IMG/VR virus record: IMGVR_UViG_3300025311_000002
Location: 1 to 38,357 of that record
From: a virus
Reading direction: 5' to 3' (one strand)
DNA length: 38,357 nucleotides
Positions 25,261 to 38,357 of this stretch are shown one piece after another. The position numbers and the translations under genes are program-made. Below the pieces are notes generated by a model. That model did no database searches. It was not told where the DNA came from and saw nothing but the letters and a program-made list of their open reading frames with translations. Each line of letters starts with the position of its first letter. Position 1 is the stretch's first letter.

Positions 25261-25334
<74 letters not shown>

Positions 25335-28978: not shown

Positions 28979-29331
28979 AGTTCGATCTCGATGCTGATGG
29001 TTTTGATGTATCCAGTTTTTTCACTTCCGAAGGTTGATGCCTCCTCAGCATTAGCGAAAAAACGGCATCCGAGATCAAAGCCATATTCTTCATGGCGATA
29101 AACATTGAACCAGCGCTTGATCTTCTTCGGCGCCATTTCCAGCGAATGATTCCCGCTGACGCCATCTTCGCCACATAGGATGATGACACCAGATTCACTG
29201 ACGACAACGATCCTTGTGTGTTCGCGTGCTTCCGGCGCATGCGCGACAAACGTGACATCGATAAATCCATTGTTATCGCTTACAAGCCGGATCGGCTCGC
29301 CGCGCTTTGCTGCCTCAAGATCGAATTTCAT
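28975..29331 (-). CDS. Hypothetical protein, 118 aa from the ATG at 29331.
   Basis: MKFDLEAAKRGEPIRL... Its ATG overlaps the stop of the pentapeptide gene (ATGA). The region is visibly lower in GC. Confidence 0.5.
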   Translation of the reverse strand: MKFDLEAAKRGEPIRLVSDNNGFIDVTFVAHAPEAREHTRIVVVSESGVIILCGEDGVSGNHSLEMAPKKIKRWFNVYRHEEYGFDLGCRFFANAEEASTFGSEKTGYIKTISIEIEL

Positions 29332-30083
29332 TTCTTGCTCCAAAGCTCGACATGTTTGTCAGCCAAGGCAATGGCTGCCAAATATTCTTGGGCGTGGATG
29401 TTGTCTCCATGTTCTCGCGTGAGATTTTCGATAAACTTCTCGCGAGTTCCGAAAAAGTAACCAGCCCTGAACCATTCGCCTTTGTCCGTCAAAAACACCA
29501 TCAGTTGGTCTGAGCACGAGCCTATAGGCCCAATTGCGAAAACTGGCCGATCGCCGACAAGTTTCCCGTATTCTTCGCCCAAGTTCGCGCCGCGCAAGTC
29601 CGCGCCGCGCAAGTTCGCGCCGTACAAGTCCGCGCCGCGCAAGTTCGCGCCGTACAAGTCCGCGCCGTACAAGTCCGCGCCGCGCAAGTTCGCGCCGCGC
29701 AAGTCCGCGCCGCGCAAGTCCGCGCCGCGCAAGTCCGCGCCGTACAAGTTCGCGCCGTACAAGTCCGCGCCGTACAAGTCCGCGCCGCGCAAGTCCGCGC
29801 CGCGCAAGTCCGCGCCGTACAAGTCCGCGCCGCGCAAGTCCGCGCCGCGCAAGTTCGCGCCGCGCAAGTTCGCGCCGTACAAGTTCGCGCCGCGCAAGTC
29901 CGCGCCGTACAAGTCCGCGCCGCGCAAGTTCGCGCCGCGCAAGTCCGCGCCGCGCAAGTTCGCGCCGTACAATTTCGCCGAGCATTTCATTGCCGCTTGC
30001 AGGCTTTTCAGCAATGTATTCTGCTCGCATCCATAGACGTACAAGACTTCACCAGACCAGCGTGACTTAATTTTGATTTTCAT
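29328..30083 (-). CDS. Pentapeptide-repeat protein, long copy, 251 aa. It has a 38-aa N-terminal cap, 26 x A[D/N]L[R/Y]G repeats and an approximately 85-aa C-terminal domain.
   Basis: The ATG at 30083 has a GGAGGG Shine-Dalgarno. The protein reads MKIKIKSRWSGEVLYVYGCEQNTLLKSLQAAMKCSAKLYGANLRGADLRGANL...GANLGEEYGKLVGDRPVFAIGPIGSCSDQLMVFLTDKGEWFRAGYFFGTREKFIENLTREHGDNIHAQEYL.... The track's 311-aa version is an upstream read-through artefact. Confidence 0.85.
   Translation of the reverse strand: MKIKIKSRWSGEVLYVYGCEQNTLLKSLQAAMKCSAKLYGANLRGADLRGANLRGADLYGADLRGANLYGANLRGANLRGADLRGADLYGADLRGADLRGADLYGADLYGANLYGADLRGADLRGADLRGANLRGADLYGADLYGANLRGADLYGANLRGADLRGANLGEEYGKLVGDRPVFAIGPIGSCSDQLMVFLTDKGEWFRAGYFFGTREKFIENLTREHGDNIHAQEYLAAIALADKHVELWSKK
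29580..29969. repeat. Tandem array of 26 x 15 bp (forward unit caagtYcgcgccgNN), varying at only two sites.
   Basis: Counted directly in the sequence. Units differ only at C/T (Asp/Asn) and CG/TA (Arg/Tyr). All six frames are open across the array. Confidence 0.95.
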
Positions 30084-30112
30084 TGCCCAACCCTCCATCA
30101 TGGGCCACCAAC

Positions 30113-30316
30113 TTATGATCCATCGCGCAAGTTCGCGCCGCACAAGTCCGCGCCGCGCAAGTCCGCGCCGCACAAGTCCGCGCCGCGCAAGTCCGCGCCG
30201 TACAAGTTCTCCGGGCATTTCATTGCCGCTTGCAGGCTTTTCAGCGATGTATTCTGCTCGCATCCATAGGCGTACAAGACTTCACCAGACCAGTATGACT
30301 TAATTTCGATTTTCAT
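30113..30316 (-). CDS. Pentapeptide-repeat protein, short truncated paralogue, 67 aa.
   Basis: MKIEIKSYWSGEVLYAYGCEQNTSLKSLQAAMKCPENLYGADLRGADLCGADLRGADLCGANLRDGS. The first 100 nt or so are nearly identical to the long copy, offset by 233 bp. It has five 15-bp units (30128-30202) and a GGAG Shine-Dalgarno. Confidence 0.65.
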   Translation of the reverse strand: MKIEIKSYWSGEVLYAYGCEQNTSLKSLQAAMKCPENLYGADLRGADLCGADLRGADLCGANLRDGS

Positions 30317-32109: not shown

Positions 32110-32289
32110 TTACTCTTCGGCCGGCTTTTCCGCCTTTAGCTTACCCTTCGTAATCACTTGGAGTTGGTACTGCCTACCCATTGGTGGGTAGATGCCCCAC
32201 CCACAAATGGATGATGCAGCGCGCATGCCAAGTTTTTTAGCCAGCTTGCGCAGGCCACCAGCCCAATCAATTGCTTCTTGCGTCGTCAT
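32110..32289 (-). CDS. Cro/YdaS-like small HTH regulator, 59 aa from the ATG at 32289.
   Basis: GGAGG Shine-Dalgarno. MTTQEAIDWAGGLRKLAKKLGMRAASSICGWGIYPPMGRQYQLQVITKGKLK has the YdaS/Cro-like layout. It is the first gene of the rightward operon. Confidence 0.6.
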   Translation of the reverse strand: MTTQEAIDWAGGLRKLAKKLGMRAASSICGWGIYPPMGRQYQLQVITKGKLKAEKPAEE

Positions 32290-32312
32290 GGTTACCTCCG
32301 TTCGGGAGCCCA

Positions 32313-32341
32313 ATAATAGCGCAGCAACAAAATTACGTCTA
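32313..32341 (-). promoter_or_regulatory. Putative PR-like promoter: -35 TAGACG, 17-nt spacer, -10 TATTAT.
   Basis: Read on the minus strand upstream of the cro-like gene, in the divergent intergenic region. Confidence 0.4.
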
Positions 32342-32655: not shown

Positions 32656-33033
32656 ATGAACATTGACGATTTGACCTATGGCGACTTGAAGAAGATCGCT
32701 GCTTTGTTTTCTGGAAATGGCGAGGCCAAGAATGCGGCCATCGATGATCATCTGATCGGAAAGCCGGTAATTATTCGCACCTACAGCGCTGGCGTTCATT
32801 TTGGGATTCTTGATGCGCGCAATGGCGCGGAAGTGCGACTTCGGGATACGCGCCGCATTTGGTATTGGGAAAAGGCATTTACTCTGTCCCAGGTTTCCCA
32901 GGATGGCGTCGGCGGCAATACCAAAATGCCAGCAGCGATCCCGGAAATCATTTTGACAGAGTGCGTAGAAATCCTTCCTTGCAGTGAGAAGGCGGCGGAA
33001 TGCCTGCGCTCATACAACGTGCATGAGGTCTAA
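32656..33033 (+). CDS. Conserved phage protein of unknown function, 125 aa from the ATG at 32656.
   Basis: AAGGAA Shine-Dalgarno. GKPVIIRTYSAGVHFGILDARNGAEVRLRDTRRIWYWEKAFTLSQVSQDGV...ILTECVEILPCSEKA resembles a widespread phage family I cannot name reliably. Confidence 0.6.
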   Translation: MNIDDLTYGDLKKIAALFSGNGEAKNAAIDDHLIGKPVIIRTYSAGVHFGILDARNGAEVRLRDTRRIWYWEKAFTLSQVSQDGVGGNTKMPAAIPEIILTECVEILPCSEKAAECLRSYNVHEV

Positions 33034-33034
33034 T

Positions 33035-33310
33035 ATGCGTCATTGGCATAAACCTGACGGCTCCGGCTCCGGCTACGGCGACGGCTCCGGCTACGGCTCC
33101 GGCTCCGGCGACGGCTCCGGCTCCGGCTACGGCTCCGGCTACGGCTCCGGCTACGGCTCCGGCGACGGCGACGGCTCCGGCGACGGCTCCGGCTACGGCG
33201 ACGGCGACGGCTCCGGCGACGGCTCCGGCGACGGCTCCGGCGACGGCTCCGGCTACGGCGACGGCGACGGCTCCGGCGACGGCTCCGGCGACGGCTCCGG
33301 CGACGGTTAA
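33035..33310 (+). CDS. (Gly-X)41 low-complexity acidic protein, X = Ser/Tyr/Asp only, 91 aa.
   Basis: The ATG lies 1 nt after the upstream TAA, with a GAGG Shine-Dalgarno. The protein is MRHWHKPD followed by GS/GY/GD dipeptides. A double stop (taataa) ends the gene. Confidence 0.6.
   Translation: MRHWHKPDGSGSGYGDGSGYGSGSGDGSGSGYGSGYGSGYGSGDGDGSGDGSGYGDGDGSGDGSGDGSGDGSGYGDGDGSGDGSGDGSGDG
33059..33307. repeat. Hexamer array built only from GGCTCC, GGCTAC and GGCGAC. It includes a perfect 60-bp tandem duplication (33181-33240 = 33241-33300).
   Basis: Read directly. The two 60-nt sequence lines are identical, and every Gly codon is GGC, except that the final codon before the stop (33305-33307) is GGT. 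Confidence 0.95.
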
Positions 33311-33359
33311 TAATCGAGAATGCCGGCTGCATTAAGCAGACGGCCATGGAGGGCGCGTC

Positions 33360-33497
33360 ATGACACGGATATTTCTTAACGGCCAACGGATCACCATCCC
33401 GGCGCCTTTGCATGTGGCATTGCATGCTCTGGTGTCGGCTCACATCAACGTAACAGAGCGCCGCCATGGCGCATGGATGGCAAAATGGGTGCAATGA
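33360..33497 (+). CDS. Micro-protein, 45 aa.
   Basis: GGAGGG Shine-Dalgarno 6 nt upstream. MTRIFLNGQRITIPAPLHVALHALVSAHINVTERRHGAWMAKWVQ. Its stop overlaps a downstream ATG (ATGA). Confidence 0.45.
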   Translation: MTRIFLNGQRITIPAPLHVALHALVSAHINVTERRHGAWMAKWVQ

Positions 33498-33933: not shown

Positions 33934-34031
33934 GCCGCTGTCAGATTTTCGGCCGGCTGTATCGCTTCTATCGCGGCTGCAACTATGGCCGCCTAGCCGC
34001 CGTCAAACATGCATGGAGTAAGAGTAAATGA
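33930..34031 (+). CDS. Basic micro-protein, 33 aa.
   Basis: MSRCQIFGRLYRFYRGCNYGRLAAVKHAWSKSK. It has ATGA overlaps with both neighbours, including the recT start. Confidence 0.4.
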   Translation: MSRCQIFGRLYRFYRGCNYGRLAAVKHAWSKSK

Positions 34032-34774
34032 CTATGCCGATCGCCACACCGAAGCCTGCCTTTTCCCTGATGCCCCAGAGCATTGAAGAGGCGATGAAGT
34101 TTGCCGAAATGCTCAGTCGCTCCGATCTGGTGCCCAAAGACTACCAGGGCAAGCCTGGAAACATCCTGGTTGCTATGCAGTGGGGTACTGAGCTCGGCAT
34201 GCAGATCATGCAAGCAATTCAGAATATTTCCGTCATCAACGGCCGTCCTGCCATGTGGGGTGATTCCGTCATCGCCCTGGTGCGCTCCTCGCCGGTTTGC
34301 GAGTACGTCATCGAGGACGTTGCCGACACGGTGGCTACTTGCCGCGCCAAGCGCCGAGGCGAGCCGGAGCAAATCCGCACATTCAGCCTGGACGACGCCA
34401 AGCGCGCCGGCCTACTCGGCAAGCAAGGCCCTTGGACCCAGTACCCCAAGCGCATGATGCAGATGCGCGCACGATCCTGGGCGCTGCGCGACGTGTTCAC
34501 CGACGTGCTGCGCGGCATGGCCGTGGCCGAAGAGGTCATGGACCTGCCACCCGAGCGCGACATGGGGCAGGCGCAGGTCGTTCAACCTGTTGCTGACAAG
34601 CCGCCCTACCCCGCCGACAAGTTCACCGAGAACTTCCCCAAGTGGGAGGGTTTGATCGCGAGCGGCCGGAAATCGGCGGCCGACGTGATCGCCACCATCG
34701 AAAGCAAGAACACCCTCAGCGCCGAGCAGCGCGCTGCCATCCTGGAAATCGCTCCCGAGGTCACCGCGCAATGA
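34028..34774 (+). CDS. recT: RecT-family single-strand annealing protein, 248 aa.
   Basis: AMKFAEMLSRSDLVPKDYQGKPGNILVAMQWGTELGM...INGRPAMWGDSVIALV...KRMMQMRARSWALRD is the RecT signature. Confidence 0.85.
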   Translation: MTMPIATPKPAFSLMPQSIEEAMKFAEMLSRSDLVPKDYQGKPGNILVAMQWGTELGMQIMQAIQNISVINGRPAMWGDSVIALVRSSPVCEYVIEDVADTVATCRAKRRGEPEQIRTFSLDDAKRAGLLGKQGPWTQYPKRMMQMRARSWALRDVFTDVLRGMAVAEEVMDLPPERDMGQAQVVQPVADKPPYPADKFTENFPKWEGLIASGRKSAADVIATIESKNTLSAEQRAAILEIAPEVTAQ

Positions 34775-36339
34775 AAATCCTGAACCTGACCCAGGGCTCC
34801 CCGGAATGGCACGCTGCCCGTGCCCAGCACTTCACCGCCAGCGAGGCGCCCGTGATGATGGGTGCCTCCAAGTACCTTACCCGGTCGGAACTGCTAAAGC
34901 AGAAAGCCACCGGCCTGGTGCCGGAGGTGTCAGAGCGACAGCAACGCTTGTTCGACAAGGGCCATGCGACCGAGGCCCTGGCCCGTCCTCTGGTCGAGGC
35001 GATGATTGGCGACGAGCTATTCCCGGCCACTGGTGTCGACGGTGAGCTGCTGGCCTCCTTCGACGGCATGACCATGCTGGAAGACACGCTGTACGAGCAC
35101 AAGCTGTGGAACGAGGACCTGGCAAACCAGGTGCGCGCTAGCGAGCTGGATCCGCACTACTACTGGCAGCTCGAACAGCAACTGCTGGTCAGCGGTGCCG
35201 AGCGCACCATCTTCGTGGTGTCGGACGGCACCCGCGACCACTTCGAGCACCTGGAATACCGCCCGGTGCCCGGTCGGGCCGAGCAGCTGCAAGCGGGCTG
35301 GGCGCAGTTCAAGGCCGATCTGGCGGCTTACGCCCCGGCCGAGGCCGCGCCCGTCGTCGAGGGGCGCGAGGTCATGGCTCTGCCGGCGTTGTCCGTGCAG
35401 TTGGTGGGCGAGGTGAAATCGTCCAACCTGGCGCTGTACCAGAACACCGCCCTGGCGTTTATTCGCGCCATCAACACCGACCTGCAAACCGACCAGGACT
35501 TCGCCGACGCGGAAAAGATCGTGAAGTTCTGCGACAAGGCCGAGAAGGAGCTGGACCTGACCAAGCAGCAGGCCCTGGCGCAGACCGCCAGTGTCGACGA
35601 GCTGTTCCGCACCATCGACGTGCTGAAGGCGGAAATGCGTAGCAAGCGCCTGGAACTGGAAAAGCTGGTCAAGTCGCGCAAGGAAGCGATCCGCCTGGAG
35701 ATTCAGCGTACCGCCGAATGGTCGTTCCTGTCGCATGTCGACAGTCTGAATGCGCGCCTGGGCCGGGTGAAGCTGCCGACATTGCGCCCAGACATCGCCG
35801 GCGCCATGAAGGGCAAGAAGACCCTCGCGACGTTGCGCGATGCGGCCGACACCGCCGTCGCCAAGGCCAAGATCGAGGCCTCGACGCTGGCCGAGCAGTA
35901 CGAGCGCAACCTGGCCACCCTGAACGAACTGGCCGGCGCGCACGCCTTTCTGTTTGCCGATGTGCAGCAATTGGTCTTGAAGGCCAACGACGACCTAGTG
36001 GCATTGATCAAGGTCCGTGTTGGCGAGCACACGCAGGCAGAGCATCAGCGCCGTCTGGCGGAAGACCTAGCCAAACAGCAACAGACCACCGCCGAGTCGG
36101 CGCACGCCATACAGGACGCACCAGCCGCTGAGGAAGTAGTGGAGCAAGCCGCTGCCCCTGCCGGCCGGCGTGGAGGCAGCTCCGGCCGACTGGTTTCCAA
36201 TTCCCCTCAGTATCGGCCGACGGACGACGAGATCATCAGCGCCCTCAGCACCTGTTTCAAGGCCACAACCAGCGTCGTGCGCGAATGGCTCCTGGGCATG
36301 GACCTCGCGAAAGCCGATCGCTTCGCCAAGGCCAGCTAA
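34771..36339 (+). CDS. YqaJ-type (lambda Exo-like) recombination exonuclease fused to a C-terminal coiled-coil extension of about 320 aa, 522 aa in total.
   Basis: The ATG overlaps the recT stop (ATGA). The N-terminus LNLTQGSPEWHAARAQHFTASEAPVMMG...YEHKLW...YYWQLEQQLLVSGAERTIFVV is a YqaJ PD-(D/E)XK domain. The remainder is a helical region resembling DUF1351-type recombination-module proteins. Confidence 0.75.
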   Translation: MKILNLTQGSPEWHAARAQHFTASEAPVMMGASKYLTRSELLKQKATGLVPEVSERQQRLFDKGHATEALARPLVEAMIGDELFPATGVDGELLASFDGMTMLEDTLYEHKLWNEDLANQVRASELDPHYYWQLEQQLLVSGAERTIFVVSDGTRDHFEHLEYRPVPGRAEQLQAGWAQFKADLAAYAPAEAAPVVEGREVMALPALSVQLVGEVKSSNLALYQNTALAFIRAINTDLQTDQDFADAEKIVKFCDKAEKELDLTKQQALAQTASVDELFRTIDVLKAEMRSKRLELEKLVKSRKEAIRLEIQRTAEWSFLSHVDSLNARLGRVKLPTLRPDIAGAMKGKKTLATLRDAADTAVAKAKIEASTLAEQYERNLATLNELAGAHAFLFADVQQLVLKANDDLVALIKVRVGEHTQAEHQRRLAEDLAKQQQTTAESAHAIQDAPAAEEVVEQAAAPAGRRGGSSGRLVSNSPQYRPTDDEIISALSTCFKATTSVVREWLLGMDLAKADRFAKAS

Positions 36340-36380
36340 CCTACCACCAACGACAAACCATTATCACTTCGGAGTACATC

Positions 36381-36662
36381 ATGAAGCACCCGCAGATTCC
36401 GCTGACCGCCGTTGAATCCTCACAGATTCACGCCATCGGCCATGACGCAAGCACCAACACCCTCGCCATCCAGTTCAAAAGCAAGGGCGGCCCAGGCAGC
36501 GTGTGCCACTACGCCAACTTCACCGACGAGCAGTACGAGCAATTCAGCAAGGCCGCATCTATCGGCGCGCACTTCGGTAAGTTCATCAAGCCGGAGACTG
36601 AAAAGCATCCGTATGTGAATGTCGCCGCCGACACTTCGGAGAACGCCGAATGCGAGGCGTAA
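36381..36662 (+). CDS. KTSC-domain protein, 93 aa.
   Basis: GGAG Shine-Dalgarno. [60 protein letters not shown] matches the KTSC pattern. Confidence 0.7.
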
Positions 36663-37405: not shown

Positions 37406-38357
37406 TTAATTCATCCTGGACACGCTGAAATTGTTTTCATTCACGCTTGACATGGTTGTGAGATTAACCGGGCTACCCGTGTTTTGATCGGCATTGATAT
37501 TTATTGTAGCGCCAGCCGCGGTGATGTTGACCTCATGTATGATCTCATATGCCACTGCGTTTGCAGTGGTTGCATAGTAATTTCTAGCTGCATCTACAGA
37601 CCCATTTACCATCACTGCCATACGGATGCGAGTGCCGATTGCCACGGCAAGAATTATGCGCGCTGCAATACGATATTGACCTGGGCCAATACAAGTGTAT
37701 GTCCATGTTGTTGGGTTATATGATGAGGACGGGTCCGCCAACTCCGTCCCATATTGGACTGTATTTGCGCCAGTAGTGAAGCCACCGGAAGGCAAAGCAA
37801 AGGTTGTTGCGGCTCTGGCCAATGAACACACTTTCTTCAATGTATCCAAGATTGGCGCCCCTTGAGCATCTGTATAAACGACTTTCGTATTGCTATTGAA
37901 ATTCGTGTAGAAATCCGTAGCAACAAACCCGAATCCAGCGTTATCCTGGGTCTGTCTGCGAACTCTGATGTCTGTAAGCTGACCGCCAGCAATGCCAAAA
38001 TCAAAGAATTGGCCGAGATCGGGCTTTGTGCCGCCCGTTTCTATCCGGTCAATGATATTCAGGTCAAGCATCGTCACCGGATTGGCAGAGCTGGCCTGCA
38101 AGGCTAGGCGAGGCCAATAGCCGCCAGACGGATTTAGAGGCCCGAAGTTATAACGATGCACAAAACGGACGGTTCCGAAATCTGAGTTACTGACCCTCCT
38201 AATGTCTATGCCATTCTGAACGTCATCAAACTCTGCTATACCCAGCTTAAAGCGGGTTGCACTCCCACCCGTCCCGGAATTGTCATTGCCAAGCGCCCAT
38301 CCAGAGCACGAACCCACCGACATAACATCAACGGTGTTTGCCGCACCGAATCCAAAA
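37406..38357 (-). CDS. Tailspike / depolymerase, C-terminal part of the junction-spanning ORF. Bases 38231-38357 duplicate 1-127.
   Basis: Track ORF 37406..38323 is the in-frame continuation. It is beta-rich with Gly/Asn/Thr-rich turns. It is the last gene of the late operon, as gp9 is in P22. Confidence 0.8.
   Translation of the reverse strand, partial: FGFGAANTVDVMSVGSCSGWALGNDNSGTGGSATRFKLGIAEFDDVQNGIDIRRVSNSDFGTVRFVHRYNFGPLNPSGGYWPRLALQASSANPVTMLDLNIIDRIETGGTKPDLGQFFDFGIAGGQLTDIRVRRQTQDNAGFGFVATDFYTNFNSNTKVVYTDAQGAPILDTLKKVCSLARAATTFALPSGGFTTGANTVQYGTELADPSSSYNPTTWTYTCIGPGQYRIAARIILAVAIGTRIRMAVMVNGSVDAARNYYATTANAVAYEIIHEVNITAAGATININADQNTGSPVNLTTMSSVNENNFSVSRMN
38231..38357. repeat. Terminal direct repeat, copy 2 (duplicate of 1-127).
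   Basis: Same 127-nt string as the window start. Confidence 0.95.

Follow-up and report, generated by a model that had tools for sequence, protein, structure and literature searches.

Several eukaryotic Sm and LSm proteins, among them SmD1, SmD3, SmB and LSm4, consist of an Sm barrel followed by C-terminal Arg-Gly repeat tails that are methylated and bound by the Tudor domain of SMN. In bacteria, the Hfq protein of Escherichia coli has a disordered C-terminal domain whose acidic tip competes with RNA, and the Hfq tails of Acinetobacter and Moraxella are Gly-rich. Here we describe a viral gene pair whose closest known counterpart is this kind of protein, an Sm-fold protein with a disordered Gly-dipeptide tail. 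The DNA analyzed, referred to as the window, comprises positions 1 to 38,357 of the IMG/VR record IMGVR_UViG_3300025311_000002. At positions 33035 to 33310 on the plus strand it carries a gene of 91 amino acids (aa) in which Gly alternates with Ser, Tyr, or Asp (the Gly-X gene), directly downstream of a gene for a DUF6948 protein with a predicted Sm-like fold. Compared with the known proteins, the phage version would be split into two genes, acidic, hypervariable, and viral.

As in the eukaryotic Sm and LSm proteins, a predicted Sm-type barrel is combined with a putatively disordered Gly-dipeptide tail of the sort that serves multivalent interactions, and two natural phage fusions (L070 and P0228) have the same domain order. 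The eukaryotic tails, however, have Arg as X and are basic, whereas X in the phage protein is Ser, Tyr, or Asp, and the array is acidic, hypervariable, and usually a separate, overlapping gene; the two share no sequence homology. In Hfq, too, an Sm fold carries a disordered extension, acidic or rich in Gly, that acts as a nucleic acid mimic and adjusts binding; Hfq supplies the mechanistic model adopted below. Its tail, in contrast, is fused, lacks strict Gly-X alternation, and is not hypervariable in length, and DUF6948 has no sequence similarity to Hfq. The prion-like domains of FUS and hnRNP proteins ([G/S]Y[G/S]) also show Gly/Ser spacers, regularly placed Tyr, and association with an RNA-binding type of fold; the phage protein differs in its strict dipeptide alternation, its abundant Asp, its lack of Gln and Asn, and its length of 50 to 130 aa.

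Other known systems are more distant. The heavy chain of Bombyx fibroin (GAGAGS/GAGAGY) alternates Gly with residues that include Ser and Tyr, but the phage array lacks Ala, has Asp at about 25% of X positions (39% in the window), is tiny, and has no recognizable signal peptide, so that the likeness is one of composition and not of homology. Staphylococcal Ser-Asp repeats (Sdr/Clf) and other coding repeats of the variable-number tandem type share a short dipeptide unit and in-frame length polymorphism between strains; the Sdr/Clf repeats, unlike the phage array, are cell wall stalks of surface adhesins, without Gly or Tyr and without an Sm-like partner. Lambda Gam, T7 gp5.9, and Ocr are acidic early phage proteins with an analogous place near recombination genes, but they are folded and free of repeats, and no homology of the Gly-X protein to them was found.

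The two genes of the window and the elements within them are as follows.

32656 to 33033, plus strand: DUF6948 gene, 125 aa (Pfam PF22253, E = 1.8e-27), first gene of the plus-strand early operon
33025 to 33028, plus strand: Shine-Dalgarno-like GAGG, read from the sequence, 6 nucleotides (nt) before the Gly-X ATG and within the end of the DUF6948 gene
33031 to 33033, plus strand: stop codon of the DUF6948 gene, separated by a 1-nt spacer from the Gly-X ATG
33035 to 33310, plus strand: gene for the 91-aa Gly-X repeat protein; in near-identical contigs, gene callers predict this same open reading frame (ORF)
33035 to 33037, plus strand: start codon ATG of the Gly-X gene
33035 to 33058, plus strand: leader peptide MRHWHKPD, 8 residues
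33059 to 33304, plus strand: array of 41 hexamers, GGC-(TCC/TAC/GAC), encoding (Gly-Ser/Tyr/Asp)41
33133, no strand: approximate mosaic breakpoint inside the array, where the identity of contig L011 to the window ends
33166 to 33306, plus strand: exact repeat of period 60, 2.35 copies of a 60-nt unit, found by sequence self-match
33305 to 33307, plus strand: last Gly codon, GGT
33308 to 33310, plus strand: stop codon TAA

The array is made of GGCTCC (19 copies), GGCGAC (15 copies), and GGCTAC (7 copies), with no other hexamer type, and the protein contains 42 Gly, 19 Ser, 16 Asp, and 7 Tyr among its 91 residues, with a computed isoelectric point (pI) of 4.05 and a net charge of -14. At a shift of 60 nt the self-match runs over 81 consecutive bases from 33166, and the Tandem Repeats Finder score of the array is 327. 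A preliminary description of this DNA, made from the sequence alone, had reported a 91-aa Gly-X protein built from three hexamers with a final GGT, a perfect 60-bp tandem duplication, and translational coupling to the upstream neighbor. The first two agree exactly with the sequence at 33035 to 33310 on the plus strand and with the 2.35 exact copies at 33166 to 33306, and the coupling is borne out by the Shine-Dalgarno-like site and a start 1 nt past the DUF6948 stop. What that description missed is the link to DUF6948, the size of the family, and the frequent C-terminal domains of its members.

All eight of the lineages sampled first (viral contigs L001 to L006, contigs L008 and L009 from metagenome-assembled genomes, and the contexts of three distant homologues, L020 to L027) have a Gly-(Ser/Tyr/Asp) array directly downstream of DUF6948. 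When viral contigs were scanned with an alignment of 32 DUF6948 sequences, at least 577 loci emerged, the best 80 of which were examined for arrays. Seventy-six of these 80 have at least six consecutive Gly-X units starting no more than 400 nt past the end of DUF6948, and the other four have degenerate Gly/Ser/Tyr/Asp-rich sequence at that spot, which in L070 is fused in frame to DUF6948. The start of the array ORF overlaps the DUF6948 stop in 67 of the 76 loci and lies within 15 nt of it in five more (72 of 76 in total). In a recurrent subset (for example, L069, L091, and L096, of L028 to L107), the array ATG seemingly lies within conserved Glu-Trp codons (gaATGg) near the DUF6948 C terminus; this embedding, read from aligned C-terminal and leader peptides and not from DNA, would produce a recurrent 13-nt overlap.

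For the reverse comparison we searched with a DNA pattern of ten GGN-KMY units, which matched 119 viral stretches, and scored those with enough upstream sequence. Arrays of mixed Ser, Tyr, and Asp are preceded by DUF6948 in 51 of 66 cases, and Gly-Ala, Gly-Ser-only, or Gly-Asp-only arrays in 1 of 25. Of the 15 exceptions, most have upstream a small ORF whose architecture, judged by eye, seems to be the same (for example, VVVVDRGWIFAGDV...HVFKW) and which looks like a divergent relative missed by the profile. No third gene conserved with the pair was found. RecT, SSB, and exonuclease genes are the commonest neighbors, each at about 10% of loci, and in relatives the cassette also adjoins terminase, ParB-methyltransferase, Thy1, and other genes. 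Two natural DUF6948-array fusions were found, L070 and P0228, the latter in a search of representative proteins.

The window has all the features of the cassette: DUF6948 lies directly upstream on the same strand, the spacer is 1 nt and the leader 8 aa, all 41 units carry Ser, Tyr, or Asp, and the use of one codon per residue and the in-frame length polymorphism of the family recur here as well. On this comparison of sequences, the Gly-X gene forms the downstream member of a two-gene cassette that is conserved and translationally coupled. The cassette appears among the early genes of numerous tailed phages and prophages, in a range that extends from Proteobacteria to Bacteroides. One of the array proteins is encoded in a genome assembly of Bacteroides uniformis, where the order is a divergent S24 repressor gene, a small ORF, DUF6948, and the array gene, mirroring the cassette beside cro in the window, in an early position. 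The DUF6948 family comprises 2806 clusters at 50% identity (E <= 1e-3). A scan of reference genomes with the DUF6948 alignment gave 2 loci, with patterns that covered the N-terminal part only. Two members, P0165 and P0256, have two tandem DUF6948 domains each, in 216 aa.

Cultured carriers of the cassette are Ralstonia phage NK-7, the Pectobacterium Ymer group, and Iodobacter phage PhiPLPE. GenBank labels the NK-7 homologue a "fibroin heavy chain-like protein," and its leader, MKRWHKPS, resembles the MRHWHKPD of the window. In PhiPLPE (L228, NC_011142; locus 1190 to 1460), a 272-nt unannotated gap between gp84 (DUF6948) and gp83 holds a Gly-(Ser/Tyr/Asp) array ORF. Literature searches on DUF6948, the array motifs, phage "fibroin heavy chain-like" proteins, and Sm-like proteins with low-complexity regions returned nothing relevant, and the paper on the Ymer genus does not discuss the array gene; the cassette of DUF6948 and Gly-X genes is undescribed in the literature searched.

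Five of the six frames are open across the window array, and the choice of frame therefore rests on comparative evidence. The same peptide pattern is encoded by GGC-TCT/TAT/GAT in L001, L002, and L005 and by GGC-TCC/TAC/GAC in the window, L003, L004, and L006, and these differences in codon set are synonymous in the Gly-X frame only. The +1 frame, which reads Ala-Pro-Ala-Thr in the window, shifts to Ala-Leu-Ala-Met in relatives with T-ending codons and was rejected as a coding frame because it is not kept. A minus-strand Arg/Ser ORF of 154 aa (33030 to 33494) was set aside as a by-product of the repeat, its nonconservation being inferred from the codon sets and not computed. A role as structured RNA was rejected, since the array folds far worse than dinucleotide-shuffled controls (z = +5.9). 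In relatives, gene callers often take the wrong array frame (ALAMAL... or GPGTGP...) or skip the array.

Each array uses about one Gly codon and one codon per X residue, and these differ among arrays (GGC, GGG, GGT, or GGA for Gly; TCC, TCT, AGC, or TCA for Ser), so that the economy of few hexamers is family-wide and not peculiar to the window phage. A census of 67 arrays anchored solely on the neighboring gene, with 1763 X positions, gave 35% Ser, 31% Tyr, 25% Asp, 3% Asn, 1.5% Phe, and less than 1% of each other residue; residues other than Ser, Tyr, and Asp make up 9% in total. Ala accounts for 0.5% of X across the family and is absent from the window array. A special avoidance of Ala, whose hexamer GGCGCC is a palindrome, was considered and rejected: the 8 counts of Ala equal or exceed those of other one-step neighbors, such as Pro (4), Thr (4), Val (2), and Cys (8). 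Arrays of a single codon set with a fixed Ser/Tyr/Asp alphabet indicate apparent selection on the peptide alphabet together with rapid homogenization within each array. The phage's own tRNA-Gly (25261 to 25334, minus strand) is no obvious supplier for the array, because its anticodon TCC reads GGA and GGG and the array uses GGC 41 times.

These observations bear on the alternative that the region is a noncoding, slippage-prone repeat whose open frames are a by-product. The five open frames and the differing choices of gene callers in relatives would fit such a repeat. Against it, the Gly-X frame is the only one kept across codon sets, as the preliminary description had assumed in taking the plus-strand frame as the gene; length variants all differ by multiples of 6 nt and preserve both the leader and the GDG-stop at the end; the start is coupled and has a Shine-Dalgarno site; arrays in many relatives are joined in frame to folded domains; and the minus-strand Arg/Ser ORF is predicted, from the codon sets, to be lost with T-ending codons. 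We regard a noncoding repeat as extremely unlikely: 33035 to 33310 is, by comparison with its relatives, a real protein-coding gene read in the Gly-X frame.

Family properties were taken from 57 distinct complete arrays, whose median length is 69 aa. Tyr or Phe occurs in every one, Asp in 56 of 57, and no array is basic; net charge per residue has a median of -0.11, with some arrays weakly charged. The C-terminal half is modestly richer in Asp (36 arrays versus 16; p = 0.006), a mild family tendency that agrees with the rise in Asp toward the C terminus seen in the preliminary description. Leaders are 2 to 14 aa long. Forty-six of 61 complete ORFs end no more than 12 aa past the array, and this array-only form, the main one near the window lineage, keeps the start codon, the coupling, the conserved alphabet, and the terminal Gly. 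Elsewhere, arrays precede at least four unrelated types of C-terminal domain. These four types have no match in Pfam or PHROGs, and their PDB sequence matches to designer PPR proteins and calmodulin were judged compositional. Proteins with a DUF7666 domain recur near the cassette (L020, 1607 to 2257; L230, 5948 to 6818), and the one in L020 ends in a low-complexity Ala/Arg/Gly tail (AARAARAAGAAGAAEAAG...).

The array is highly variable in length. The DUF6948 protein of the window (P0041) occurs at 100% identity on 23 contigs, and among contigs with flanks at least 99% identical, alleles of the Gly-X gene encode 53, 71, 75, or 91 aa, the 71-aa one being the most frequent. The differences among these near-identical phages are always multiples of 6 nt, and the leader and terminal GDG-stop are always intact. 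The 71-aa allele (L010, L014, and L018) is 20 aa (60 nt) shorter than that of the window, which equals one copy of the window duplication. Since all length changes are in frame, there is no on/off phase variation; the suggestion of a hypervariable contingency gene in the preliminary description thus stands as to length and falls as to switching by frameshift. Bacteroides phages confirm the length variation independently: array proteins that share the same leader and, at 100% identity, a 149-aa C-terminal domain measure 187, 227, 229, 235, 239, 241, 243, 247, 257, or 259 aa, with arrays that differ in length and in the order of Ser, Tyr, and Asp. One further protein, P0311 (205 aa), has an N terminus unrelated to that of the Bacteroides array proteins and looks chimeric.

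The array also acts as a joint between modules. In L011 (3353 to 3826), whose DUF6948 is 100% identical to that of the window, the array runs on in frame past the breakpoint and leads into another C-terminal domain; the module downstream is ERF and not RecT/exo. The C-terminal domain is weakly similar to DUF7666 and is 46% identical (E = 1e-24) to that of L135, another DUF6948-linked array protein, indicating that the array-domain architecture is natural and the array a mosaic joint. We infer that replication slippage or unequal recombination drives the evolution of the array, with its residue alphabet under selection. No second array copy that might serve as the template repeat of a diversity-generating retroelement was found in the window, where part of the ORFs were scanned for reverse transcriptase, and the varying bases of the hexamers are T/G and C/A and not adenine-specific. 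Many contigs (L015 to L017, L019, and many of L028 to L107) end inside or just after the array, 90 to 220 nt past DUF6948, making the array an assembly breakpoint.

For DUF6948, structure prediction gives an Sm/LSm-like fold with high confidence. AlphaFold2 modeling from the DUF6948 alignment gave a predicted local distance difference test score (pLDDT) of 89.7 and a predicted template modeling (TM) score of 0.73. In the predicted model, an N-terminal helix and a disordered linker precede a beta-barrel and a C-terminal helix, and the N-terminal helix together with the strongly bent five-stranded barrel is what defines the Sm fold. All 50 PDB matches listed by Foldseek are Sm/LSm proteins or entries for small nuclear ribonucleoproteins or spliceosomes that contain Sm proteins; archaeal Sm proteins align with a target TM score of 0.70 to 0.75 and a root mean square deviation of about 3 Angstrom over about 83 residues (E of about 1e-3). 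Matches in a viral structure library are other DUF6948 proteins and proteins labeled Sm-like or RNA-binding. The invariant residues form a basic and aromatic set: R41, Y43, H48, F49, R66, R67, W69, W71, and K90.

The Gly-X protein itself has no match in PHROGs, PADLOC, or NCBIfam, and its Pfam matches are low-complexity ones of the TrAA12 type, all below threshold; related array proteins give subthreshold low-complexity matches to keratin head and CFAP143. AlphaFold2 modeling of the window protein from its single sequence returned a pLDDT of 43.8 and no secondary structure. The protein is probably intrinsically disordered, for which a low pLDDT is weak evidence. The resemblance to silk fibroin-type beta-sheet repeats put forward in the preliminary description is one of composition only, given the lack of Ala, the strong acidity, and this unstructured model.

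The reading that we tentatively favor, with a probability just short of even, is that the disordered, acidic, Tyr-bearing Gly-X protein is a partner of the Sm-like early protein DUF6948. The two would act together, with the Gly-X chain as a disordered "tail in trans" of the Sm-like protein that docks on the invariant Arg/aromatic cluster (the residues from R41 to K90 listed above). The tail might mimic single-stranded nucleic acid, with Asp as phosphate and Tyr as base, and so gate the Sm-like binding surface in the manner of the acidic tail of Hfq. Alternatively, its Tyr residues might serve as multivalent "stickers" that cluster the complex, as in Arg-Gly-tailed Sm proteins and FUS-type domains. 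In many relatives, the array would also tether one of at least four C-terminal domains to the DUF6948 hub. Function would be set by the composition and length of the array and not by its exact order, and on this proposal slippage would be tolerated because composition and length are what matter. A more ambitious version, which we consider rather unlikely, pictures a device resembling a ribonucleoprotein granule among the first phage genes: an Sm-like ring with a separately encoded FUS-like chain of Tyr, Ser, and Asp, whose length and charge, varied by slippage, would adjust the capture of host or phage RNA or of a defense factor, or would diversify it in an arms race with the host, with the array as a universal adaptor for interchangeable effector domains.

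Several points weigh against a partnership of this kind. Physical interaction between DUF6948 and the Gly-X protein is putative, and disorder of the latter is predicted from a single sequence. The relationship of DUF6948 to Sm proteins is one of predicted fold only, with ring formation and RNA binding both putative: DUF6948 has no LSM or Hfq match in Pfam, its sequence search of PDB returned no match, and hhalign against E. coli Hfq gave a probability of 0.15. Because there is no link to Sm or Hfq at the sequence level, we speak of an Sm-like fold and not of a member of the Sm family. The overall charge of DUF6948 is close to neutral (median of -1), so that any electrostatic complementarity would be local. 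Natural fusions are rare, numbering the two given above. Finally, part of the length variation could be an artifact of short-read assembly, because many contigs end inside arrays.

Other functions can be proposed for the same protein. The preliminary description had envisaged a stand-alone polyanionic decoy, a mimic of nucleic acid that would inhibit a host nuclease such as RecBCD or a defense sensor, in the manner of lambda Gam or T7 gp5.9, and here DUF6948 would be a mere neighbor or helper. Such a decoy would suit the net charge of -14 and pI of 4.05, the acidic or neutral character of all 57 arrays, the early-operon position ahead of recT and exo, and the frequency, though not constancy, of RecT, SSB, and exonuclease genes as neighbors, and hypervariability would fit an arms race. 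The Gam-like idea, however, comes from position alone, and the sole constant neighbor is DUF6948 and not the recombination genes; the cassette also stands beside terminase, ParB-methyltransferase, and Thy1 genes. Moreover, arrays contain Tyr or Phe no less universally than Asp, some of them have little charge, many have additional C-terminal domains, and PADLOC, Pfam, PHROG, and NCBIfam gave no match to an anti-nuclease family; we hold a decoy distinctly unlikely. We judge it just as unlikely that the array is a mere flexible linker or recombination joint, that is, a spacer for C-terminal effectors and module exchange of which the array-only allele of the window would be a truncated remnant. 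The at least four unrelated domain types that follow arrays, the L011 breakpoint inside the array of this very phage species, and the identical hexamers shared by arrays of different phages all point in that direction. Yet the array-only form is the most frequent one among relatives (46 of 61 complete ORFs), with start codon, coupling, alphabet, and terminal Gly retained, and a simple linker would have no need of both Tyr and Asp in each array.

Self-assembly into silk- or amyloid-like sheets, or into a Tyr-driven gel or condensate forming, for example, a compartment or plug with DUF6948 as chaperone or nucleator, seems quite improbable. The known motifs of fibroin (GAGAGS/GAGAGY) and of FUS-type proteins ([G/S]Y[G/S]) do resemble the alternation of Gly with Ser and Tyr, the NK-7 homologue bears a fibroin-like label, and a cotranslated partner suits a chaperone role; but 16 Asp in 91 residues disfavor packed beta-sheets without counterions, Ala is missing, AlphaFold2 places no strands, and the arrays are short, with the median of 69 aa given above. 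Least probable among these functions, and in our view very doubtful, is a kil-like or toxin-antitoxin-like pair in which an aggregation-prone array protein harms or arrests the host and the Sm-like protein tempers it. The tight two-gene overlap, the conserved gene order, and an early place where lambda carries kil (a positional analogy only) speak for such a pair, while the lack of similarity to toxin or antitoxin families in Pfam, PADLOC, and NCBIfam speaks against it, and the fusions L070 and P0228 would be odd for it.

The genes that place the cassette in the early region, and others nearby or otherwise of note in the window, are listed here.

29328 to 30263, minus strand: pentapeptide-repeat gene (Pfam E = 3.5e-73), with 15-bp tandem arrays at 29576 to 29967 and 30124 to 30207
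32110 to 32313, minus strand: divergent Cro-like gene (Pfam P22_Cro, E = 1e-11), marking the immunity/early control region
34028 to 34774, plus strand: RecT-like annealase gene (PHROG 561 at 8e-61; Pfam RecT), same operon, downstream
34771 to 36339, plus strand: RecE/YqaJ-type exonuclease gene (PHROG 7655 at 1e-207; Pfam YqaJ), same operon, downstream
36285 to 36662, plus strand: KTSC-domain protein gene, between the exonuclease and SSB genes
37406 to 38323, minus strand: 305-aa ORF at the window end, with no Pfam or PHROG match

An early operon ahead of recT/exo, as proposed in the preliminary description, is supported by the Cro-like, RecT, and exonuclease assignments from Pfam and PHROG. 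Its direction has to be corrected: the operon runs on the plus strand, and "leftward" applies by analogy with lambda, given the divergent Cro-like gene. The pentapeptide-repeat region is called as genes of 67 + 251, 57 + 143, and 57 + 171 aa in near-identical sister contigs and thus likewise looks length-polymorphic or assembly-unstable. The portal protein of the window phage is P22-like, with Pseudomonas and Ralstonia phages as the nearest cultured relatives by portal (45 to 47% identity); a search for DNA near-identical to the window among GenBank phages found no match.

With the cassette, DUF6948, a family of 2806 clusters found on at least 577 viral contigs, gains a constant partner, a predicted fold, and a testable hypothesis. 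The arrays also expose a blind spot of annotation, as their frame is miscalled or skipped (Iodobacter phage PhiPLPE is an example) and assemblies often break inside them. If the proposed partnership is true, the pair would be an Sm-like protein working with a Gly-dipeptide low-complexity tail, which may be a rare kind of protein among prokaryotic viruses, and it would provide a natural case of a function that tolerates or exploits very fast in-frame turnover of a repeat.

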